A stretch of DNA of 53,586 bases, from IMG/VR virus record IMGVR_UViG_3300044994_000102, positions 1-53,586 of that record; one strand, written 5' to 3'. Positions 612 to 53,072 of the stretch are shown one piece after another. The notes beneath the pieces are model-generated. The model was given only the letters and a program-made list of their open reading frames with translations, had not been told where the DNA came from and ran no database searches. The stretch comes from a virus (Duplodnaviria > Caudoviricetes). Position numbers and translations under genes: made by a program. Position 1 is the first letter of the stretch. Every line of letters starts with the position of its first letter.

Positions 612-880
612 TTGGCTTTGGGTTCGTCCCACTCCACCTGCCGTGCGTGCCGTGTTGGGTTGGCGTAGAACCCGACGATGCTCCGCGCGAGTGCGAGCTC
701 AACGCGCCGCCGTTGTTCGTCCAGGTCGCACTGGTAGGGAACCGTGGCGAAAACACTCCCGGTGCGCACCTCCGCTGCAAGCCCGTCTTCAATTACGATT
801 GAAAACGGCCACATGCCGCTCTTGAAACCGCCGCCGGGCAGCGGGCCCTTGAAAATGTCAACTTTGATTTTGATATTCAT
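608..880 (-). CDS. Hypothetical protein, tandem paralog 1
   Basis: Start at MNIKIK (ATG 880, AAGGA RBS), which aligns with the start of paralog 272..547. Confidence 0.85.
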   Translation of the reverse strand: MNIKIKVDIFKGPLPGGGFKSGMWPFSIVIEDGLAAEVRTGSVFATVPYQCDLDEQRRRVELALARSIVGFYANPTRHARQVEWDEPKAK

Positions 881-941
881 AGTTTTCCTTTTTTCCGTAT
901 GCGTTACGCGGCTCACAGCGCCGCTTTCTTTCAGTCTCATT

Positions 942-990
942 ATGATGCACCAGACGTGCCCACCTTGTCAACAATAATCGTACAATTATT
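942..990 (-). promoter_or_regulatory. Leftward sigma70-like promoter with an adjacent AT-rich palindrome
   Basis: Minus strand TTGACA-N18-CATCAT; near-perfect palindrome AATAATCGTACAATTATT at 973-990, just upstream of the -35. Confidence 0.5.
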
Positions 991-1020
991 ATAAGTATAA
1001 ATATCAGGTACTTAGCCGGG

Positions 1021-1761
1021 TTACAGCGCCTCGGCCCGCCGAATCACGTCCCCGTAGTACTCGAGTTCCCACTCGCGCCGACCGAATTCCGTCCCCCGGT
1101 GTCCGCCGAGAGACGCGACCCGGAGATGCTCGCGGGGCCAGCGCCCGCCGCCGTTCATCGCGTAGGCCGGGTGGGTCGGCAGTCCGTTCGCGGCCAGGTA
1201 GCCGAACACGTCGCCCCACCGCCACCAGCCGATCGGCCGTGCAGTGCGCTCTCCGACCAGCCCAAGTTTTTTGGTGATAATCTCCCGCACCCGCGACTCG
1301 TCCCGGCGGACACCGGAGATATGCCTCGCCGTGCCGAGCGTCTCGCGGGCGCGAGCGAACCCGTCGGCCGAGGTCCGCTCGCCGGTCTCGGGGCGTTTCC
1401 AGCCGCCGCCCCAGTCGATCGGGATCTCGAGATACGGCAGGTCCCTCGTGCGGAAAAACTCGTCGCGAACTGCCGGACAATCGGGGTTGAAAATCGGATC
1501 GACTTTTACCCACACCAGCGTCGGCACGTGCGCGAGCCGGTCCCGCACCCGCCACACGAGGTCCGCGACGACGACGGAATCTTTGCCCCACGACACGCCG
1601 AGGTAGGCGGGGCCGGCGGCCATGAACTCGACGACGGCTCGCTCTGACTGATCCACCAACCGGGCCAGCCGTGGTGAGTCCCCGTGTACGAGGTCGGCGG
1701 CGTACTCGTCCCGCCAGAGTGCGAGGTCCTCTTTGCGGTGGCGGTCGGACGGGATCAGCAC
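1021..1761 (-). CDS. cysH: CysH/PAPS reductase-family protein associated with type IV-B CRISPR-Cas
   Basis: PP-loop YLGVSWGKDS, GVRRDES, RPIGWWRWGDVFGYL..NGLPTHPAY; probable GTG start at 1761 overlaps the cas6e stop (ORF track extends to 1785). Confidence 0.85.
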   Translation of the reverse strand: MLIPSDRHRKEDLALWRDEYAADLVHGDSPRLARLVDQSERAVVEFMAAGPAYLGVSWGKDSVVVADLVWRVRDRLAHVPTLVWVKVDPIFNPDCPAVRDEFFRTRDLPYLEIPIDWGGGWKRPETGERTSADGFARARETLGTARHISGVRRDESRVREIITKKLGLVGERTARPIGWWRWGDVFGYLAANGLPTHPAYAMNGGGRWPREHLRVASLGGHRGTEFGRREWELEYYGDVIRRAEAL

Positions 1762-2330
1762 AACAGCAGCAGTCCCAACCCCCACGCCTTGCCGTGACCA
1801 ATGCCGTGCGTGACGGCGGCGCGGAACATCGCAGCGTCGATCACGGCGAGCGTGCCGGAGAAGTCGACGACCAGGATCGCCATGGTACGCCCGCCGTCCC
1901 GTACCTCCCAGCGGTCGCGTTGGACGCTCACGGAGTGCCCCGGCTTAAACCCGTGTCGCTCGCCCTGCCGCTGGAGCCACTCGAAGTAGATCTCGCGCTG
2001 GCGGTCCGCGTCGAGTACGCCGTACGCCGGGTCGCACCGGCGGTTCTTCCCGTTGATGAACTTCGTCACGGTCGGGTTGCAGCGGAGACGGAATCGGCGC
2101 TCGCCATCGAGCGGCGGCTCGAATGCCTCCGACGACATGACATCGGACACGGCCAACGGCAGGCGCGGAGCGAGCGCGACCAAAGAGGGGCCGTCCACCC
2201 GGTAGAGAAAATCCCTCGGGCTGTCCGGGTCAGCCGAGAACAACCTCATCGCCTCCTGGTGCGCCCAGTAGTGTTTGCACACGCCGGGCGGAGGGATCCC
2301 AAGCCGAACTTGCGTGAGCGTCAGGCTCAT
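1755..2330 (-). CDS. cas6e: Type I-E-like Cas6e (Cse3/CasE) crRNA-processing endoribonuclease
   Basis: YWAHQEAMRLF (catalytic His motif), FLYRVD, RFRLRCNPT, WLQRQGERHGF, VDFSGTL, C-terminal G-loop GIGHGKAWGLGLL; ATG 2330 overlaps the csf3 stop (ATGA). Confidence 0.88.
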   Translation of the reverse strand: MSLTLTQVRLGIPPPGVCKHYWAHQEAMRLFSADPDSPRDFLYRVDGPSLVALAPRLPLAVSDVMSSEAFEPPLDGERRFRLRCNPTVTKFINGKNRRCDPAYGVLDADRQREIYFEWLQRQGERHGFKPGHSVSVQRDRWEVRDGGRTMAILVVDFSGTLAVIDAAMFRAAVTHGIGHGKAWGLGLLLLC

Positions 2331-3013
2331 ATCGGCTCCACGATTTCGCAGTACCGGTCCCCGTGCCAGTACGGCGGGCAGCACGCGCCGAACGATTTGC
2401 GGTAGCCGACCAGGGCATTGGGCAGCTCGTCGCACAACGGTAGCGGGCGCATCAGCAGCGTGCCTTCCGGGGCGTCGGCGTACCACCAACACTCTCGGTC
2501 GGTCGGCTCGACCTCCCATCGGGACACGGCGCCGTACCCCTTCGCCACGCGCTGGCCGATGGCCTTGACCCTCCCGAGCGCCACCTCGATCGCTTCCCGG
2601 TCCGCCAGGCAGAACCAGACCACGCGCTCCACCCGCCGCACGTCGAGCGGGAGGCGGTAACTCTTGGTCCAGAACCCCACCGTGATCACCGTCTTTCGGT
2701 GCTCGGGGGCGAGGAGGTCGGCGTGCTCGACAGCCATCCGCTTGGTGATGTGCTCGACGGTAGTGGCGGCGGCTTCCTCCGCGATTGGCGACGAGCAGCA
2801 CGCGACCGGCCAGCCGCCGATGACCTCCCTCGCGACCGGGATCGGGATGTCGCCCGGTGGGTACACCGGCCGTTGCTTGTCGACCGTCCACCGCGTACCG
2901 GTCCCCCCGTGCTTGGCGACGCTGACCGAATACTCCAGTAGGGCGTCGAGCTGCGGCGGGGACCCGGCCATCGGGGCGGCCATGTGAGCGGTCACCTTCA
3001 ATGGCTCCGTCAC
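2327..3013 (-). CDS. csf3: Type IV Cas5-family subunit Csf3
   Basis: PLKVTAHM, LDALL, G-rich loop IGQRVAKGYGAVSRWEV, LMRPLP, PPYW; GTG 3013 overlaps the csf2 stop (GTGA). Confidence 0.85.
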   Translation of the reverse strand: MTEPLKVTAHMAAPMAGSPPQLDALLEYSVSVAKHGGTGTRWTVDKQRPVYPPGDIPIPVAREVIGGWPVACCSSPIAEEAAATTVEHITKRMAVEHADLLAPEHRKTVITVGFWTKSYRLPLDVRRVERVVWFCLADREAIEVALGRVKAIGQRVAKGYGAVSRWEVEPTDRECWWYADAPEGTLLMRPLPLCDELPNALVGYRKSFGACCPPYWHGDRYCEIVEPI

Positions 3014-3924
3014 CCCAGTAGCGCCTCCTGCGCCGAGCCCTTCTTGCCCTTCTTCGGCGCCCGGTAAAACGCATCGGTCAACCACTGGCGGCACTCGTCC
3101 CGGTGCTCCTCGACGTGGGCGAGGTAGGCGGCAACGGCATCGGCCCTCGTCTCGTCGTGCCCGAGGAGGACGGTCTTGAGCCGCCCGTGTCCGCGGGCCG
3201 CCTGCCCGCCGATGGTGCCGCCCGCGTTCGCCCACAGGAGGAGCGAGTGCAGCAGCGCCCCGAGCTCGAGCGGCGACGGGTGAAGGAGCGTGAACCCGTG
3301 CAGGAACATCGCGCCCCGCATGACCGCCTGACCCGAGAAGATCATGAGGCTGCTCTTGTCCTTCTCGGCGCCGGCCGGCAGGAGGTCCCCGGCCGACTTC
3401 TCGGCGTCGGATCGCGTGTACTGGTATCCGGAGATGTACGCGTGGGCCGGGTGGAACGTCACGCCGTCGGTGTCGAACCCGGGCGGCAGGAGCATCCGAA
3501 GCTGCGCCTCGTTCTCGCGGCAGAGGAGCGTGCCCCGCCAAACGTGCAGGCTGCCCGACAGCACCTGATCGGGGAGGCATCCGCCCAAGAGCCGGAACAA
3601 CGGGAACAGCCGGTACATCTCGGCGATCCGCGCGGTGTTCTCCCGGCCGGTGCTCTCGGTGAGGTTCCCGCCGTGGAGGAGGAAATTGAGTTGCTCGAGG
3701 CTGAGCTCACCCTTCAGGCCCATCCGCTCGACGAGGTGACGGGCACCGGGAGCGCGAACGCAGCGGTGGCGGATGGCGTTGCCGGACAGGAACGGAACCC
3801 ATCGGACGCCGTCGTTGGTTCGAACCGGTTCGATGGCGCACAAGGCTTCGTTGCCCTCCGTGCGGCTCATGTGGGTAATCGGGGACACGGCCTCGCTCAA
3901 ACAGTGAACGCTATAATTTTCCAT
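3010..3924 (-). CDS. csf2: Type IV Cas7-family backbone subunit Csf2
   Basis: SPITH, VPFLSGNAIRHR, FLLHGGNL, FPLFRLLGG, YQYTRSD, G-loop IGGQAARGHGRL; 304 aa. Confidence 0.9.
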   Translation of the reverse strand: MENYSVHCLSEAVSPITHMSRTEGNEALCAIEPVRTNDGVRWVPFLSGNAIRHRCVRAPGARHLVERMGLKGELSLEQLNFLLHGGNLTESTGRENTARIAEMYRLFPLFRLLGGCLPDQVLSGSLHVWRGTLLCRENEAQLRMLLPPGFDTDGVTFHPAHAYISGYQYTRSDAEKSAGDLLPAGAEKDKSSLMIFSGQAVMRGAMFLHGFTLLHPSPLELGALLHSLLLWANAGGTIGGQAARGHGRLKTVLLGHDETRADAVAAYLAHVEEHRDECRQWLTDAFYRAPKKGKKGSAQEALLG

Positions 3925-18438: not shown

Positions 18439-18954
18439 ATGCCGAAAAATAGAACGCCCGAGATTCAACACCTCAAGACGGCCGCCCTCATCCCGTACGC
18501 CCGGAACGCCCGCACCCACACGGAGGCGCAGGTGGCCCAGATCGCGGCCAGCATCCGCGAGTTCGGGTTCACCAACCCGGTGCTGGTCAAGGGGGACAAA
18601 ACCGTCATCGCGGGGCACGGGCGGCTTCAGGCGGCGCACCTGCTCGGGCTGGAAACGGTGCCGTGCCTCGTGCTCGACTACCTGACCGACACGCAGGCGA
18701 AAGCGCTCGCGATCGCCGACAACAAGATCCCGCTCAACTCCGGCTGGGACGTCGACTTGCTCAAGCTGGAGATGGAAGAGCTTCAGGAAAAGGGCATAGA
18801 GGTAGCACTGCTCGGTTTCAGCGAGGCAGACCTAGCAACGATTTTCCCGGTGGTGCCCGACTTCCAGCCGGTGAGCGTTGACGAGCAGGGAAAGCTCGAT
18901 GAGAAGAAGAAAGCTATGTGTCCCAACTGCGGCCATGAGTTCGAACCGAAGTGA
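18439..18954 (+). CDS. ParB/Srx N-terminal domain protein
   Basis: LIPYARNARTH, IAASIREFGFTNPVL, IAGHGRLQAA, IADNK, C-terminal CPNCGHEF. Confidence 0.9.
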   Translation: MPKNRTPEIQHLKTAALIPYARNARTHTEAQVAQIAASIREFGFTNPVLVKGDKTVIAGHGRLQAAHLLGLETVPCLVLDYLTDTQAKALAIADNKIPLNSGWDVDLLKLEMEELQEKGIEVALLGFSEADLATIFPVVPDFQPVSVDEQGKLDEKKKAMCPNCGHEFEPK

Positions 18955-19648
18955 CCTGAAACTCGATTGGTGCAGTCACGAAGCGGCGGAATATGCCTGT
19001 AGACAGTGGCACTATTCAAAAACAATGCCATCGGGAAAGGTCGCGAAGGTGGGAGTCTGGGAAGAAGAACAGTTCATCGGCGTCGTACTGTTCGGGAGTG
19101 GTGCAACACAGCAGATCGGGATGCCGTACGGACTGACACAACATCAGGTGTGCGAGCTAGTGCGAGTTGCACTCGACGCCCACCACTCACCGGCAAGTCG
19201 AATCGTCGCTATAGCTATCCGTTTGGTAAAGTCGGCGTTCCGTGGTTTGCGGCTTATCGTCTCCTACTCGGATCTGAACCAAGGACATCTTGGGGGTATT
19301 TATCAGGCGGGCAACTGGCTTTTTGTCGGCAAGGCAAAGGACCATGCCGGTGCCGTCGTTCTCCACGGCCGACAACATCACGGCAGGAGTATAGTCGCGA
19401 AGTACGGGACTCGTAATTTGGATTGGCTCAGGAAGCACGTAGATCCCAACGCGAGGCACGCCGAAACCGAAGGCAAACTGAAGTACCTCATGCCGCTTGA
19501 TGACGAAATGCGGCAGAAGCTGCTACCTTTGTCGAAGCCGTACCCGAAACGCGCCGGTAGTGTAACGCCAGCACGCCCTGCTAACCTGCAAGGAGGAGGC
19601 GGTTCAAGTCCGACCTCGGCGCTCCATTCTCAAGACGAAGACACATGA
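18935..19648 (+). CDS. mom: Mom-family GNAT-fold DNA (adenine) modification protein
   Basis: WHYS, GVWE..FIGVVLFG, CELVRVAL, LIVSYSD..QGHLGGIYQAGNW, KLKYLMPL, YPKR; placed between ParB and terS. Confidence 0.8.
   Translation: MSSNRSDLKLDWCSHEAAEYACRQWHYSKTMPSGKVAKVGVWEEEQFIGVVLFGSGATQQIGMPYGLTQHQVCELVRVALDAHHSPASRIVAIAIRLVKSAFRGLRLIVSYSDLNQGHLGGIYQAGNWLFVGKAKDHAGAVVLHGRQHHGRSIVAKYGTRNLDWLRKHVDPNARHAETEGKLKYLMPLDDEMRQKLLPLSKPYPKRAGSVTPARPANLQGGGGSSPTSALHSQDEDT
19551..19626 (+). tRNA. tRNA-Gly-like element (atypical) nested in the mom 3' end
   Basis: 76 nt; acceptor GCGCCGG/TCGGCGC, U73 plus encoded CCA, D stem GTGT/GCAC, T loop TTCAAGT; 8-nt anticodon loop containing ACC, no D-loop GG, bulged T stem. 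Confidence 0.7.
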
Positions 19649-20115
19649 AGGGCCGGAAGCCGACGCCGAATAACCTGAAGCTCTTGACGGGCAATCCGGG
19701 CAAGCGGCCAATCGCCGACGAGCCCGAGAGTCCTCTCCTGCCGGCCGACGACGAGCCGCCGGCGTGGCTGCACGACGACGCGAAACAGTTCTACCGCGAG
19801 ATCCTTCGGACCCTTTCCACCATGAGGGTCGCCACTGAGGCCGATCGGCTCGGCATCATCGCGTTGGCGCAATCACTGGCCGAGGTGAAGATCGCCCACG
19901 AGCAGATGAACAAGTACGGCCGGGTCATCAAGGACAAGTCCGGTGGCGCTACTCGGAACCCGTACGCCGTCCACGCGGCGCAGTTCATCGCGTTCGTCCG
20001 CCAGTTCATCACCGAGTACGGGCTCACCCCGTGCAGCCGGGCGAGGCTCATTGCGAAGGCCGAGGGGGGCGAGGAAGACCCGTTTACCAAGTACCTGAGC
20101 GGTGGCAAACAGTGA
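19645..20115 (+). CDS. terS: Terminase small subunit, P27 family
   Basis: GRKPTPNNLKLLTGNPGKR, PPAWL, NPY, EYGLTPCSRAR. Confidence 0.92.
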   Translation: MKGRKPTPNNLKLLTGNPGKRPIADEPESPLLPADDEPPAWLHDDAKQFYREILRTLSTMRVATEADRLGIIALAQSLAEVKIAHEQMNKYGRVIKDKSGGATRNPYAVHAAQFIAFVRQFITEYGLTPCSRARLIAKAEGGEEDPFTKYLSGGKQ

Positions 20116-21787
20116 GTCCGAACATCCCGCCGAGCGGTACATTCGCCACGTCCTTGACGGAACCCAGCTCGCCTGTCAGTTCGTCCGCCTGGCCGTCGAG
20201 CGGCACGTCTCCGACCTGAAGAAACAGGCAGACTCCAACTACCCCTTCTACTTCGACCCGGCCGCCGCCCAGCGGGTCATCGGCTTCTTCCAGTTCTGTA
20301 ACCACGTCGAGGGCAAGTGGGCCGGGGAGCCCATGGTCCTGGAGCCGTGGCAACAGTTTGCATTGTGGGTGCCGTTCGGCTGGAAGCGGAAGGGGAGCGG
20401 GCTTCGCCGGTTCCGCCGGGCGTACGTGGAGGTGGCCCGCAAGAACGGCAAGAGCACCTGGACCGCCGGCCTGGGGTTGTACTTCCTCATCGCCGACGGG
20501 GAGCCCGGTGCGCAAGTTTACTCGGCCGCCACCACGAGGGACCAGGCGAAGATCATCCACACGGCCGCCAGCCGCATGATCAAGGTGAGCCCGTACCTGT
20601 CCCGGATGGTGCGAACTGTCAAGAATAACTTGTCGGTTGTCGAGACGTTCTCGAAGTTCGAGCCGCTCTCCGCCGACTACAACACACTTGACGGCCTTTC
20701 CCCGTCGGCGGGGTTGATAGACGAGGTACACGCCCACCGAAACCGCGGGGTGGTGGACGTCATCGAGACCGGCATGGGCGCCCGCCGGCAGCCGATGATG
20801 TGGATGATCACGACGGCCGGCATCAGCACGGCCAACTCCATCGCGCTCGAGTTCCGGAACCACGGCGAGCAGGTGCTGAAGGGCATCCGGGAGGACGACG
20901 CCTACTTTCCCCTCATCTACACGCAGGACGACGGGGACGACTGGCTGGATGAGAAGCTCTGGACCAAGAGCAACCCGTCGCTCGGGGTGTCGGTCAACAT
21001 CGATGAGCTCCGGGACCTGGCGCTGAAGGCGAAAGAAATCCCCGCCGCGCAGAACAACTTCAAGACGAAGCGGCTCAACATCTGGTGCAACTCCAGGAGC
21101 AGGTGGGTGCCTGTCGAGCGGTGGGACGCGTGCAAGGAGGAGTTCGACCTAAAGGAGCTCCAAGGGAAAGAGTGTTACGCTGGCCTCGACCTGTCCACCA
21201 CCACCGACCTGTCTGCGCTGGTGCTCGTGTTCCCGTGGGCGGACGACCGCTACCGGGTGTTGCCGTTCTTCTGGGTGCCGGCGGAGAATGCCGACCTCCG
21301 GGCCCGGCGGGACCGCGTCCCGTACCCGCAGTGGATCCGGGAGGGGTACATCACGGCGACGCCGGGGAACGTCATTGACTACGGATTCATCCGGAAGGCC
21401 ATCACCGGCCTGGCCGACGTGTACAGGCTGAAGGAGCTGGCGGCCGACCCGTGGAACGCGACTCAAATTTTGCAACAGCTTCAGGAGGAGGACGGCATCA
21501 AGGTGGTCGAGATGCGGCAAGGGTTCGCCTCGATGTCGGCCCCGATGAAGCAGCTGGAGACGCTCGTGATGAGCCAAAAGCTCCGGCACGACGGGAACCC
21601 GGTCATGCGCTGGATGTGGGACAACGTGAGCGTGAAAATGGACCCGGCTGGGAACGTGAAGCCCGACAAGGAGAAGTCCGCCGAACGCATCGACGGGGTC
21701 GTGTCGCTGGTCATGGGGGTGGGGCGGGCGGCCCTCCGGAAAGAGGTCGTCAACCCGTACGAGACGGGCGGCCTGTTCGCCGTCTAG
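20102..21787 (+). CDS. terL: Terminase large subunit
   Basis: LEPWQ, VARKNGKS Walker A, IDEVH, ITTAG, GLDLSTTTDL, RIDGVVS. Confidence 0.95.
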   Translation: MANSESEHPAERYIRHVLDGTQLACQFVRLAVERHVSDLKKQADSNYPFYFDPAAAQRVIGFFQFCNHVEGKWAGEPMVLEPWQQFALWVPFGWKRKGSGLRRFRRAYVEVARKNGKSTWTAGLGLYFLIADGEPGAQVYSAATTRDQAKIIHTAASRMIKVSPYLSRMVRTVKNNLSVVETFSKFEPLSADYNTLDGLSPSAGLIDEVHAHRNRGVVDVIETGMGARRQPMMWMITTAGISTANSIALEFRNHGEQVLKGIREDDAYFPLIYTQDDGDDWLDEKLWTKSNPSLGVSVNIDELRDLALKAKEIPAAQNNFKTKRLNIWCNSRSRWVPVERWDACKEEFDLKELQGKECYAGLDLSTTTDLSALVLVFPWADDRYRVLPFFWVPAENADLRARRDRVPYPQWIREGYITATPGNVIDYGFIRKAITGLADVYRLKELAADPWNATQILQQLQEEDGIKVVEMRQGFASMSAPMKQLETLVMSQKLRHDGNPVMRWMWDNVSVKMDPAGNVKPDKEKSAERIDGVVSLVMGVGRAALRKEVVNPYETGGLFAV

Positions 21788-51180: not shown

Positions 51181-51573
51181 ATGTTCAAGTTCCTCCTGTG
51201 GCTCTACCGCGTCACGCTCGGCGGCTTCCTGGCCGGGGTCGCGTTCGTCTGGCGGGAGTGGGGCTGGCCCACGGTCGCCGGCTGGCTCGTGGTGGCCCTA
51301 ATGCTGGGCGTCCACGGCTACCTCTGGCTCCTCCTCGTCGCCGCTCTCGGCCTGAACCAACTCGTCGCCCTGATGGCGTTCGTGACTGCCGCGGTGAGCA
51401 TCACCGGCGTCGCCGCCACCAACACCGTCCCGTGGGTCGACACCGCCATCCGGTACGCCTGCGACGTGATCACGAAGGGCTACGCCGACCGCTGCCACAC
51501 GGCGACGTATCCCGCCGACCCCCGCCACGCCCTGGCGCCAAAGCGCACCGGGGCAAGCGCCGACGAAAAGTGA
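51181..51573 (+). CDS. Membrane protein
   Basis: About three TM segments; AAGGA RBS. Confidence 0.65.
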   Translation: MFKFLLWLYRVTLGGFLAGVAFVWREWGWPTVAGWLVVALMLGVHGYLWLLLVAALGLNQLVALMAFVTAAVSITGVAATNTVPWVDTAIRYACDVITKGYADRCHTATYPADPRHALAPKRTGASADEK

Positions 51574-51644
51574 TCCCCCAGGCACGGCAGGGCGTTCCTG
51601 CCGTGCCGCTCCGTTCCCGCAACCCTGATACACGAGGTGGCCGC

Positions 51645-53072
51645 ATGAAAGAGTTCCTGAAAATCATGTTGATGGTTTTGACAGGGGAGTTCCCGGAAGC
51701 CGCCACCCCGCCGCCGCCCCGCCGCAAGAACGGCCCGAAGATCCCACTGGCCGACATGCGAGACCCCGAGGAGCTGTTCAACGGCTGCGTCATCGCCGCC
51801 ATGAAGGGGGCCGGGAAGACGAACCTGATCAAGAAGTTGGTCAATAGTGTGATCGACCTCGGCCGCCCGGTGTACCTGATCGACACCGGGGACAAGTGGG
51901 CCGAGCACGTCCGAAGGGTGCGGCCGAAGACGCTCGTCCGGCGGGTCAGCCCTCACACGGTCGGTGGCCTGAAAATCCACTGGGCCAAGACCGTCAACAC
52001 CCCGGCCCGCATCCAGGCGTTCACCGGGAAGATCGTCGGGAACGAGAAGAGCGAGTCGAAAAACCCGTACTTCCCGACGAACGCCCAGCTCGTGATGATG
52101 GCGGCGATCGAGATGCTCATCATCTTCCTGGGCGACAAGTGGACGCTCCGGGACTTCATCATCCTCGCCACCAACCGCAAGCTGTTCGTCGCCCTGCTCG
52201 ACCACCCGAAGGTCAAGGGCCGGGTCAGAGACCCCCAGGACCAGTTCGCCCACAACGACAGCGCCAGGGACGTGATGGGGACCGTCGTCAGCCACCTCCT
52301 CCCCCTCATGGTGTACGCCGCCCTCGAGGAGCACGCCCCGGCCAAGGTCGGCCTGTTCGACGCGATCGACGAGGGCGGGGTCACGATCTTCGAGTGGAGC
52401 GACAACTTCGCCGAGGCGAACTCGAAAATGCTCTCTCTGGCGGCCGAGCTGGTGATGGACGAGCTCCTGTCCCGGCAGGCGGAGAACCTGGTCCTCTGGT
52501 GCCTGGACGAGATCCGGAGCCTGGCCCAGATCGACGCCATCGCGAACGTCGCCACCCGCGGGCGGCGCAGCGGCATCGGGTTCGTCTGGAGCATGCACAT
52601 CATCGAGGGATTGCAGGACCGGTACACGAAGCTCCGGGCCATGGAACTCGCCGACCTGATGGGCATCAAGATCTTCCTTAACCTGGACGGCAACGCGACC
52701 CTCGCCTGGGCGGCCGACTCGCTGGGCAAGTGCCAGCACGTCGTCGAGGTCTGGAAAGACGGCCTCGACGGGAAGGCCGGCCACTGGGAGCGGTCCGTGC
52801 GGGAGCTGCACCGCGTCCCGCCGATCGAACTGCAAATCCTCCCCTACGCCGACCCGGTCGCGGACAAGGTGTGCGGGTACGTGAAGGACAGGTTCGGCGT
52901 CAGCTACTTCGACGCCAAGTTCCTGGCCGACTGCCCGATGCTCACCGACCCGGGGCCGACCCTTCAGCCACAGGACTGCCAGCGGCTTAAGCGCCTCACC
53001 CGTGACGACATGGCCAGGTGGGGCGTCGGCGTCCTCACCAAAGAGATCAAGGAAGCGCTGGACCTGTCATGA
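51645..53072 (+). CDS. TrwB/TraD-like type IV coupling protein
   Basis: Walker A MKGAGKT, NPYF, Walker B WCLDEI, RGRRSG, WAADSLG. Confidence 0.8.
   Translation: MKEFLKIMLMVLTGEFPEAATPPPPRRKNGPKIPLADMRDPEELFNGCVIAAMKGAGKTNLIKKLVNSVIDLGRPVYLIDTGDKWAEHVRRVRPKTLVRRVSPHTVGGLKIHWAKTVNTPARIQAFTGKIVGNEKSESKNPYFPTNAQLVMMAAIEMLIIFLGDKWTLRDFIILATNRKLFVALLDHPKVKGRVRDPQDQFAHNDSARDVMGTVVSHLLPLMVYAALEEHAPAKVGLFDAIDEGGVTIFEWSDNFAEANSKMLSLAAELVMDELLSRQAENLVLWCLDEIRSLAQIDAIANVATRGRRSGIGFVWSMHIIEGLQDRYTKLRAMELADLMGIKIFLNLDGNATLAWAADSLGKCQHVVEVWKDGLDGKAGHWERSVRELHRVPPIELQILPYADPVADKVCGYVKDRFGVSYFDAKFLADCPMLTDPGPTLQPQDCQRLKRLTRDDMARWGVGVLTKEIKEALDLS

Follow-up and report, generated by a model that had tools for sequence, protein, structure and literature searches.

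The Mom protein of bacteriophage Mu moves glycine from Gly-tRNAGly to the N6 position of adenine in double-stranded DNA, after which the glycyl group on the adenine rearranges to a carbamoylmethyl adduct, as reported by Silva et al. (Nat Commun 2026, PMC13219725; an earlier version of the Mu Mom/Gly-tRNAGly work appeared as a preprint in 2023, bioRxiv 10.1101/2023.03.24.534169). The first-pass annotation of the locus described here had mentioned this use of glycyl-tRNA by Mu Mom, correctly according to that paper. That the carbamoylmethyl group comes from Gly-tRNAGly has only recently been settled, and the published view is that host tRNA is scavenged; Mu Mom accepts all three host tRNAGly isoacceptors, its recognition is assigned by the authors to the 3′ acceptor end of the tRNA, and R111 and S124 are given as its catalytic residues (PMC13219725).

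The determinants reported for eubacterial glycyl-tRNA synthetase (GlyRS) are G1:C72, C2:G71, C35, C36 and U73, and the L. plantarum enzyme requires the arms and the whole L shape of the tRNA (PMC10464925). Nearly all of the affinity for EF-Tu is described as being fixed by T-stem pairs one to three. In Staphylococcus aureus and S. epidermidis, non-proteogenic tRNAGly species (NP1-NP3) feed FmhB, FemA and FemB. Their T loop has TGC or TGT rather than TTC, and their binding to EF-Tu via the T stem is weak; EF-Tu inhibits FmhB and sequesters proteogenic Gly-tRNA (PMC7826273). The earlier statements that T-stem pairs set EF-Tu affinity and that non-proteinogenic tRNA-Gly species feed Fem ligases both agree with this account.

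The window analysed is the whole 53,586-nt virus record IMGVR_UViG_3300044994_000102. It contains a Mom-family gene (Table 1) whose product matches PF25680 over profile positions 2-202 of 202 (E 9.7e-45, 153.2 bits against a cut-off of 27.1). The start of this gene is uncertain, the open reading frame (ORF) running from a TTG at 18878 and containing ATG codons in frame at 18899 and 18935; in the 256-residue ORF at 18878-19648 the Mom domain spans residues 27-224 and ends at approximately nucleotide 19549. BLASTP comparison with Mu Mom gave 24% identity (E 3e-11), with the homology of both proteins stopping at PYPK. R101 and S114 of the GenBank Mu sequence have R and S opposite them in the window protein, and probably correspond to the published catalytic R111 and S124 through a numbering offset of +10, which also fits M107. 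The ParB-Mom gene order seen here is annotated in phiEf11 and Appa, and was also found at another viral locus (L033). Downstream, the mom stop codon and the ATG of the small terminase gene overlap in ATGA (19645-19648). A tRNA-Gly-like element begins one base past the end of the Pfam Mom domain, on the same strand as mom, and is traversed by the last 33 mom codons.

Table 1 Coordinates of the genes at the Mom locus and of the parts of the tRNA-Gly-like element
Feature	Position	Strand	Evidence or remark
ParB-like nuclease-domain gene, upstream of and overlapping mom	18439..18954	+	Pfam ParB_N, E 2e-08
Mom-family gene	18935..19648	+	Pfam PF25680 Mom
tRNA-Gly-like RNA element, long class, 76 nt	19551..19626	+	Model R3, relaxed ARAGORN, Rfam tRNA, covariation
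Acceptor stem, 5′ strand (G1 C2 G3 C4 C5 G6 G7)	19551..19557	+	Partner 19616-19622
D arm: stem GUGU/GCAC, 7-nt loop AACGCCA without GG	19560..19574	+	Sequence; D stem covaries in family
Anticodon-like arm CCCUG/CAAGG, one C.A mismatch, 8-nt loop CUAACCUG	19576..19593	+	Sequence, relaxed ARAGORN
T arm GGCGG / UUCAAGU / CCG-A-CC, bulged A at 19613	19598..19615	+	Sequence; family
Acceptor stem, 3′ strand UCGGCGC, U73 (19623), encoded CCA (19624-19626)	19616..19626	+	Sequence
Small terminase subunit gene (terS)	19645..20115	+	Pfam Terminase_4, E 4.5e-15
Large terminase subunit gene (terL)	20102..21787	+	Pfam TerL_ATPase, TerL_nuclease

The 76-nt cloverleaf had been proposed at first pass from the letters of the window, and both the sequence and a covariance model of the family place it at exactly that position. 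It has four arms and a 7-bp acceptor stem (GCGCCGG/UCGGCGC, with one G-U pair) followed by U8 and A9. Missing D-loop GG, an anticodon loop of 8 nt and a bulged T stem had been described, and all three were seen. The window copy retains the canonical U8 and the T loop UUCAAGU (TTC), and lacks a 7-nt anticodon loop with U33, G18G19 and a regular 5-bp T stem, the bulged A lying between pairs 51:63 and 50:64. The C.A mismatch and the 8-nt loop belong to a copy without a close relative that would reveal selection on it.

ARAGORN found no tRNA gene in the window with default settings, and at 90% of the threshold it returned exactly the 76 nt of the element, labelled tRNA-?(Val|Gly)(aacc) and having an 8-nt loop. 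The Rfam tRNA model RF00005 aligned over its whole length with 19552-19622 and scored 17.3 bits, short of the gathering threshold of 29. Model R3, a covariance model of 21 related elements from which the window copy was excluded, matched 19551-19626 over model positions 1-76 (62.5 bits, E 2.7e-14), the runner-up across the 53,586 bases on both strands scoring 12.6 bits, and a model of a second, short class of elements from which the window copy was likewise excluded (R2) gave 27 bits. Covariance models had been suggested as a check, and it is the family model that finds the element, whereas ARAGORN at default and the Rfam cut-off do not. As a single sequence the element folds no better than shuffles (z = -0.72), so that the window sequence by itself proves nothing; it is the comparative evidence from R3 and R2 that sets the match apart from chance. 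A search of the record, a complete virus without host genome, for a second copy or another tRNA returned this element alone, and contigs from four runs of one sample contained no variants of it. The sequencing runs listed for this phage comprised eight DNA entries from five studies, two of them possible sources of this DNA, and none was RNA. The Rfam cut-off was reached by none of the 20 family elements tested, and because ARAGORN default and this cut-off miss them, such elements are unannotated, for example in Arthrobacter phage BarretLemon.

Conservation of the fold was scored in 53 distinct copies, 22 of the long class and 31 of the short class. RNAalifold on a near-ungapped MAFFT alignment of the 22 long-class copies recovered the four arms with the bulged T stem and compensatory changes at 15 of 21 pairs; 96.1% of cells were paired, compared with 36.8-43.9% when the partners were slid, and the covariation score of 0.516 (0.151 in shuffles) was matched by none of 500 shuffles. 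Short-class copies were paired in 99.3% of cells (27.9-41.2% when slid), with compensatory changes at 14 of 19 pairs. Acceptor pairs 4-7 covary with up to five pair types, the D stem covaries (e.g. GUG/CAC versus GCA/UGC), and so does the T stem (e.g. G:C to A:U in 15/31 short-class copies). All 53 copies have G1:C72, C2:G71, G3:C70, U73, a CC in the anticodon-like loop and a bulged A on the 3′ side of the T stem, and 44/53 encode CCA. A pattern search that left the 5′ GCG and the loop CC free gave 78 further distinct elements, 77 of which have the GCG and 77 the CC. The window element carries the marks of the family: the bulged A, the GCG/CGC acceptor end and U73. Conservation and covariation among mom homologs, without which the first-pass proposal would have fallen, were thus clearly found. 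A quick tree, with SH-aLRT support only, did not settle the relationship between the long and short classes (16 changes each).

The GlyRS sequence determinants G1:C72, C2:G71 and U73 are present in the window element together with a CC at 19585-19586, the conserved loop CC of the family, which within the 8-nt loop is probably equivalent to C35/C36. The claim that the element carries bacterial GlyRS identity elements holds for these positions; it had also included G3:C70, a pair that is invariant here but is not listed among the determinants in PMC10464925. Conservation of the acceptor end could equally reflect recognition by Mom, besides GlyRS. Because the L. plantarum enzyme needs the arms and the full L shape, it is uncertain that copies lacking a D arm or a normal elbow would be charged. 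Decoding features (U33, U8, G18G19 and TTC) are lost in much of the family. U8 is replaced by A in 20/22 long-class copies, of which only 5 keep TTC and 15 have a T loop beginning with TG; TTC is found in 0/31 short-class copies, in which the D arm is down to 2 bp. Of 78 loops, 13 are 8 nt long, and among the 60 seven-nt loops 23 have U33. A and U are equally frequent at the position-34 equivalent (28 ACC, 28 TCC). The best reading of these features is that the element is not a decoding tRNA.

The element is closely linked to Mom genes. Among the best 80 viral Mom loci, all 80 had either the element or a canonical tRNA-Gly: 72 by the pattern, four by the model (L044, L076, L017, L033), and four as an ARAGORN tRNA-Gly in place of the element (L029, L032, L063, L069). 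In the reverse test, 72 of 80 loci picked by the RNA motif alone, all of which are full-length model matches, had a Mom gene on the same strand; Mom was not recognisable in three (L126, L140, L179) despite full flanks and the element. Linkage in both search directions means that chance is no explanation. On this comparative evidence the window element is a member of a large, unannotated family of Mom-tied tRNA-Gly-like RNAs. The position of the RNA varies: it lies after the mom stop codon (L027), upstream of ParB-Mom (L033), or, at 15 or more loci, just upstream of a divergent Mom gene, and two Microbacterium phages, Appa and Phonegingi, have an annotated tRNA-Gly on the opposite strand, 33 nt past mom. 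Such varied positions and orientations are evidence that would favour action in trans over action in cis. The element is missing in Mu, phiEf11, three other cultured phages and a Pseudonocardiaceae prophage subclade, and Mom chemistry is therefore independent of it.

With a probability of roughly 65%, the element is a non-canonical derivative of tRNA-Gly, encoded by the phage, that acts together with Mom and supplies a glycyl carrier avoiding EF-Tu and the ribosome. Its expression, processing, glycylation, exclusion from EF-Tu and use by Mom are predictions from sequence. The element would be transcribed with the late operon (HNH, ParB-like, mom, terS, terL) and excised by host tRNA-processing enzymes, and host alpha2beta2 GlyRS would charge it via G1:C72, C2:G71, U73 and the CC in its anticodon-like loop. 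The T-stem bulge and the lost decoding features would keep the charged RNA off EF-Tu and the ribosome, and late in infection, as translation competes for Gly-tRNA, Mom would have a private pool of activated glycine. With somewhat less confidence, we favour viewing the locus as an enzyme and co-substrate cassette, in which the gene of a GNAT-fold DNA glycyltransferase nests a private, non-proteinogenic tRNA-Gly in its last 25-35 codons, and the RNA keeps what GlyRS and Mom would need while shedding what the ribosome and EF-Tu would.

The first-pass annotation had regarded the tail of the Mom ORF as read-through of the RNA. This is borne out in so far as the tail has no excess of variation at third codon positions: entropies at the three positions are 0.85/0.67/1.50 in the body of mom and 0.71/0.82/0.87 in the element. 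However, 49/53 copies keep the mom frame open across the element, compared with 41/106 for the other two frames, which is too often for mere accident. One locus retains the fold despite a frameshifting 1-nt insertion (L062), and three have stop codons before or within the element (L021, L027, L070). A functional C-terminal peptide was rejected, given that codon-level constraint is absent and frame breaks are tolerated. It is an unusual genetic arrangement for an RNA gene to overlap an ORF that is held open. The donor model leaves the openness of the frame unexplained, and excision of the element from the ORF would deprive the mom message of a stop codon. Both points count against that model, as do the C.A mismatch and 8-nt loop of the window copy, the use of all three host isoacceptors by Mu Mom, the Mom phages and prophages in which the element is missing, and the three loci with an element but no recognisable Mom.

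The best surviving alternative, which we nevertheless consider unlikely, is a regulatory mimic, in which the element would be an uncharged tRNA decoy for Mom or GlyRS, in cis or as a free RNA, that limits or times a potentially toxic activity. Mu mom is tightly controlled (annotated late promoter, Com translational activator), and both the location of most elements inside the mom transcript and ORF and the acceptor end, which is the most conserved part of the element and the presumed site of Mom recognition, are consistent with such a decoy. The loop CC (53/53, 77/78) is however a GlyRS determinant far from the acceptor-end site of Mom, the CCA encoded by most copies fits a chargeable end, and the replacement of the element by a canonical tRNA-Gly in relatives, some on the opposite strand, excludes a purely cis role there.

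Punctuation of transcripts by tRNAs is known from mitochondrial transcripts and from mascRNA, and the element could similarly be an RNA-processing or stability signal, that is, an RNase P/RNase Z site or a protective 3′ structure between the mom and terminase messages. This we regard as less likely still than a decoy. The glycine-specific determinants and the loop CC would be needless in such a signal, which would otherwise suit the window, where the element sits after mom and ahead of the packaging genes, and where the terS start and the mom stop overlap. Small, terS-like ORFs likewise make up most of the 50 that were checked downstream, but their families differ and none is Terminase_4 (0/50), indicating that the element tracks Mom and not the terminase; in BarretLemon and Appa the neighbours of the element or tRNA-Gly are not packaging genes, and the element is also found upstream of ParB-Mom or Mom.

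Phage-encoded tRNAs are common, and the normal tRNA-Gly calls at four of the 80 Mom loci and in Appa and Phonegingi would fit an ordinary tRNA-Gly that aids translation of glycine codons and sits beside mom by chance or through shared regulation. That explanation is very unlikely for the window copy and the bulk of the family, in which decoding features are gone (the D arm is lost in 31/53 copies, the position-34 equivalent shows no preference for U over A, and no tested element passes the Rfam cut-off); ARAGORN at default finds no other tRNA in the window, and the linkage to Mom is too tight for chance. Least probable of all is that a Mom C-terminal peptide (R-A-G-S...G-G-x-x-P-T-x-A-L) or a DNA site (pac, cos or attP) is conserved rather than an RNA: the open mom frame (49/53 vs 41/106), the GG..PT..AL motif recurring in translated tails and, for a site, the adjoining terS in the window are outweighed by the absence of codon periodicity, compensatory stem changes that alter distant residues together, the frameshifted tail and the three early stops, and elements outside any mom ORF. 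Two specific sites were rejected, a packaging site on the differing downstream gene and terminase families beside the element, and attP on the late-operon position, the conservation of the whole cloverleaf rather than its 3′ half, and the lack of an integrase (none in the window by Pfam at E ≤ 1e-4).

The literature searched, which took in the main text of PMC13219725, yielded no account of a tRNA or tRNA-like element linked to Mom. That paper reports more than 8000 Mom-bearing contigs; its main text does not mention a tRNA-like or phage-encoded tRNA, a neighbor, genomic context or a fusion. The present family suggests that a large clade of Mom phages and prophages, whose hosts belong to several bacterial phyla, brings its own carrier. 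If the tRNA-Gly derivative does act as glycyl donor, it would be the first viral non-proteinogenic tRNA, and a concept tied to a single bacterial genus and to cell-wall synthesis would be extended to viruses and DNA modification. The tRNA gene would, in addition, share its sequence with an ORF in a dual use where excision and translation are mutually exclusive and could set the ratio of enzyme to donor. The elements, including those of about 70 nt without a D arm, would be natural minimal substrates for studying recognition by Mom and GlyRS and exclusion from EF-Tu, and the covariance models could be used to annotate them and to flag phages whose DNA probably bears the Mom modification.

Several known systems resemble this arrangement in part. 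Appa and Phonegingi have a tRNA-Gly(ccc) and a tRNA-Gly(tcc), respectively, next to a Mom homolog annotated 'acetyltransferase', and score 41.8 and 44.4 bits with model R1. These are regular, tool-detectable cloverleaves on the opposite strand without ORF overlap, and no link to the neighbouring gene was made by the depositors. The 3′ ends of plant viral RNAs form aminoacylatable tRNA-like structures, and tRNA-like operators and processing signals occur in mRNAs; these mimics are embedded in a longer RNA and recognised by host tRNA enzymes, as the Mom-linked element would be. To our knowledge, none of them is encoded in the same gene as an aminoacyl-tRNA-dependent enzyme, and none is a derived cloverleaf with a conserved anticodon-loop determinant. 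Mu Mom belongs to the same family and uses the same class of co-substrate, a tRNA-Gly with U73 and a GCG/CGC acceptor end. It differs in drawing on three host isoacceptors, with no tRNA or tRNA-like element beside mom.

The staphylococcal non-proteogenic tRNAGly species, as described in PMC7826273, are likewise paralogues charged by GlyRS that lack translation features and provide glycine to an aminoacyl-tRNA-dependent transferase, and the TG that begins 15/22 long-class T loops recalls them further, the window copy differing in that it keeps TTC. They are chromosomal, free-standing, regular cloverleaves confined to staphylococci, and their acceptor is a peptidoglycan precursor, whereas the Mom-linked element is viral, mostly nested in the ORF of the enzyme, has a bulged A and often no D arm, and its presumed acceptor is DNA. 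Common descent is unlikely because of the viral, high-GC setting and the different anatomy, and the likeness probably lies in a similar way of working.

Inspection of the sequence bore out the tRNA-Gly-like cloverleaf that the first-pass annotation had placed in the 3′ end of the Mom-family ORF: a 7 bp acceptor stem opening with G1-C72, C2-G71 and G3-C70 leads to U73 and a CCA that is encoded; GG is missing from the D loop, CC is present in an anticodon loop of 8 nt, and the T stem carries a bulged A. This copy has one C.A mismatch and is without a close relative. ARAGORN called no tRNA anywhere in the window at default settings, and at 90% of threshold its call, tRNA-?(Val|Gly)(aacc), coincided with the 76 nt exactly. 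The Rfam tRNA model gave a full-length match of 17.3 bits, under the cut-off of 29; Rfam 15 is without a separate family for the element, and shuffles do equally well in a single-sequence fold. A covariance model of 21 copies of the 76-nt (long) class, with the window left out, gave the element 62.5 bits (E 2.7e-14); the second-best match within the window reached 12.6 bits. A 1748-nt contig from the same sample, with a depth of about 38 where the phage has about 7, aligns with the T arm and the 3′ strand of the acceptor at 30/32 nt; the match is ungapped, so the bulge is kept, and on either side of it the contig shows no relation to the window. This could be a further element of the Mom type, carried by a phage or prophage of higher abundance.

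Viral relatives of the Mom domain (PF25680) numbered 422; the best 80 loci (identity to the query 47-58%) were fetched with their flanks, and almost all carry related sequence after the PYPK at which the conserved domain ends. A strict pattern of bulged T arm and acceptor 3′ strand matched 72/80; model hits added two compensated variants (L044, L076), one element placed behind the second of two tandem mom genes (L017) and one upstream, in the order element, ParB, Mom (L033), and ARAGORN at default settings called a tRNA-Gly in L029, L032, L063 and L069, so that a tRNA-Gly or look-alike is found in all 80 of these best loci. The second mom copy of L017 is putative, identified by eye from the sequence. 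Distinct copies number 22 in the long class, window included, and 31 in a class of about 70 nt whose D arm has shrunk to a 2-bp helix. G1:C72, C2:G71, G3:C70, U73, the bulged A and the CC of the anticodon-like loop are present in 53/53, and an encoded CCA in 44/53. The eubacterial GlyRS determinants are reported as G1C72, C2G71, C35, C36 and U73 (PMC10464925), and the alpha2beta2 form of the enzyme goes together with U73 (PMC3990555).

The fold proved conserved and covarying when the 3′ ends of mom homologs were aligned, as the first-pass annotation had proposed to check. RNAalifold on the almost ungapped long-class MAFFT alignment recovered a cloverleaf with a bulged T stem and compensatory changes in 15/21 pairs. 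In an explicit count 96.1% of cells were paired, vs 77.9% in shuffles and 36.8-43.9% when the 3′ partners were displaced by 1-3 columns (slid controls), and the covariation score was 0.516 vs 0.151 in shuffles, of which 0/500 reached the observed score; kinship among sequences can beat shuffles even without structure, yet the slid controls, which retain that relatedness, score far lower. The short class gave 99.3% paired vs 27.9-41.2% slid, compensatory changes in 14/19 pairs, and 0/500 shuffles.

In the reverse direction, the viral collection was scanned by RNA motif (bulged T arm, four free bases, CGCUCCA) with Mom not used. At least 119 stretches matched; 80 loci were fetched, and all 80 are full-length model hits (36.7-92.3 bits). 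A same-strand Mom homolog lies within 900 nt in 64/80 by tblastn (35 arranged as in the window, 18 with an upstream Mom that is more divergent, and 11 with a divergent Mom starting just downstream), and Pfam adds eight more, giving 72/80. Five of the other eight end at a contig edge less than 400 nt upstream; in L126, L140 and L179 the flanks are complete and neither tblastn nor Pfam recognises a Mom within 900 nt, and these could represent Mom loss or a different partner enzyme. The element of L140 is 3′ of a glycosyltransferase-like ORF and that of L179 lies between ParB and TerL, and two loci carry tandem pairs of the element. Among 78 distinct new elements, features unfixed by the pattern recurred: 5′ GCG and loop CC in 77/78 each, and acceptor pairs 4-7 paired in 97-100% with four to six standard pair types each. 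Loops of 8 nt occur in 13/78, so the odd loop of the window is a recurrent variant, while the 60 seven-nt loops have TCC (28), ACC (28) or CCC (3) at the anticodon position and U33 in only 23. The ORF 3′ of the element, inspected in 50 loci, is mostly small and terS-like, of differing families (DUF5681 five times, Terminase_2 once, weak HTH-type matches five times, TerL of two different families twice), and Terminase_4, the window's family, is absent from these 50; Mom, rather than terminase, is what the element accompanies.

In named-species genomes the element follows mom in 11/24 loci, with carriers including Oceanicaulis, Ralstonia, Paraburkholderia, Roseicyclus, two Saccharibacteria, one Calditrichaeota and one Fimbriimonadaceae; the 13 loci without it include three partial Mom matches and nine Pseudonocardiaceae prophages (L089, L091-L096, L098, L100), which sit on actinobacterial chromosomes and show neither element nor tRNA within 1.5 kb. 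Eight cultured phages were examined. Arthrobacter phage BarretLemon (KU647629.1) has a near-canonical, unbulged tRNA-Gly(UCC)-like element (51.3 bits) overlapping the last 21 nt of an annotated 'acetyltransferase' CDS, unannotated in GenBank and missed by ARAGORN at default; Microbacterium phages Appa and Phonegingi have an annotated tRNA-Gly on the opposite strand, 33 nt past the Mom homolog; and phiEf11, Mu, Polaribacter phage P12002L, Salmonella phage FSL SP-038 and Geobacillus phage PK3.6 gave no element in a model search with filters off (best scores ≤13.6 bits). A tree of 84 Mom proteins from a quick maximum-likelihood search (support by SH-aLRT only) placed every carrier in one clade of 80 rows (support 99), 69 of them with the element or a tRNA-Gly, and Mu and three other distant phages outside it; long and short classes are intermixed. 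Nine of the 11 non-carriers within the clade form the single, well-supported Pseudonocardiaceae subclade, which suggests one loss event, perhaps linked to the GlyRS type of the host or its supply of tRNAGly.

The window record is a complete virus of 53,586 bp (65% G+C) with an HK97-type layout by Pfam: a replication module, then HNH, ParB-like nuclease domain, Mom, TerS and TerL, followed by portal, capsid, tail and lysis genes. Immediately 5′ of Mom, and often overlapping its start, is a gene with a ParB-like nuclease domain in every locus whose upstream gene was inspected (window, phiEf11, Appa, Phonegingi, L033); the two genes and the tRNA-like RNA may constitute a single module. Elsewhere, the C-terminal half of a 439-aa ORF matches the CRISPR_assoc domain (PF08798, E 1.2e-25), giving this virus a Cas-like protein, and a 624-aa ORF matches TrwB_AAD_bind and TraG-D_C, type IV secretion coupling-protein families unusual in a tailed phage; since the latter is close to the record end, a phage-plasmid or an assembly join has to be considered.

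Coordinates of the element and associated features (L-numbers denote fetched loci)
Locus	Position	Strand	Feature
Window	1758-3074	-	Cas-like ORF
Window	18439-18954		ParB-like gene directly upstream of mom; ParB-like genes also in L106, L108, L033, L179
Window	about 19549		End of Mom domain (Pfam)
Window	19551-19626	+	tRNA-Gly-like element
Window	19592-19623		Match to 1748-nt contig
Window	19645-19648		ATGA, mom stop/terS start overlap
Window	51198-53069	+	Coupling-protein-like ORF
L017	109-696		First mom gene
L017	about 700-1330		Second mom gene (putative)
L017	1334-1408		Element
L107 (BarretLemon)	2095-2168		Near-canonical element
L142	825-894, 901-969		Tandem elements
L179	231-845 (oriented)		ParB_N ORF
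L179	ending 929 (oriented)		Element
L179	885-1829		TerL ORF
L192	335-402, 404-472		Tandem elements

That Mu Mom uses glycyl-tRNA, as put forward in the first-pass annotation, agrees with published work, in which the enzyme moves glycine onto N6 of adenine in double-stranded DNA with Gly-tRNAGly as donor; any of the three E. coli isoacceptors serves and Gly-tRNAAla does not, and the authors speculate that Mom reads the 3′ acceptor end (PMC13219725). The window's Mom has R and S aligned with the Mu residues equated, through an inferred +10 numbering offset, with catalytic R111 and S124. The element would be transcribed with the late operon and then excised, host GlyRS would recognise the conserved determinants of acceptor and loop and charge it, and Mom would use the charged product. 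The case for charging comes mainly from the loop CC, a feature that Mom presumably does not recognise, and that for action in trans from the opposite-strand and upstream arrangements. Counted against a glycyl carrier are the reported need of L. plantarum GlyRS for the whole L shape (PMC10464925), the many Moms without an element, the three elements without an adjoining Mom, the preserved read-through, and the mismatch and isolation of the window copy; a regulatory decoy and, after it, a processing or stability signal are less probable alternatives, and the conserved loop CC speaks against both.

An ordinary decoding tRNA would suit the default tRNA-Gly calls, but features needed for decoding are lost in the family: A replaces U8 in 20/22 long-class copies, TTC in the T loop is retained in only 5/22 long and 0/31 short copies, and 0/20 elements tested reached the Rfam tRNA cut-off.

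The Mom domain ends just before the element, so the last 33 ORF codons are the element and a short run to the stop, and ribosomes reading through would finish exactly at the terS translation start. The mom frame is open across the element in 49/53 distinct copies, vs 41/106 for the other two frames; read-through itself seems favoured, one possibility being translational coupling to the downstream gene. The mom body has the third-position excess typical of coding (entropy 0.85, 0.67 and 1.50 at codon positions 1, 2 and 3; 180 codons), which is absent from the element (0.71, 0.82, 0.87); a 1-nt insertion in L062 shifts the tail frame with the fold kept, stop codons fall inside the element in L021 and L070, and in L027 it sits past the stop. 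The ORF tail looks like read-through of an RNA, as first proposed, and a peptide or DNA site is the least likely of the alternatives.

A Mom-linked tRNA or tRNA-like element is not described in the full-text literature searched or, by term look-up, in the main text of two Mom papers, and an acyl-CoA donor was still the assumption in a 2021 survey of jumbo phages (PMC7824862). By analogy, the element would belong to a kind already known, a dedicated non-proteinogenic tRNA-Gly for an aminoacyl-tRNA-dependent GNAT-fold transferase; its novelty lies in being encoded by a virus, in usually sitting within the ORF of the very enzyme it would serve, and in a presumed role in DNA modification. Its closest working analogue is the staphylococcal non-proteogenic tRNAGly, in which TGC or TGT replaces TTC and EF-Tu binding is weak, so that the donor of the Fem transferases is not sequestered; the first three T-stem pairs are reported to set EF-Tu affinity almost wholly (PMC7826273). 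In the Mom-linked family the invariant bulged A sits within these three pairs, and 15/22 long-class T loops begin with TG.
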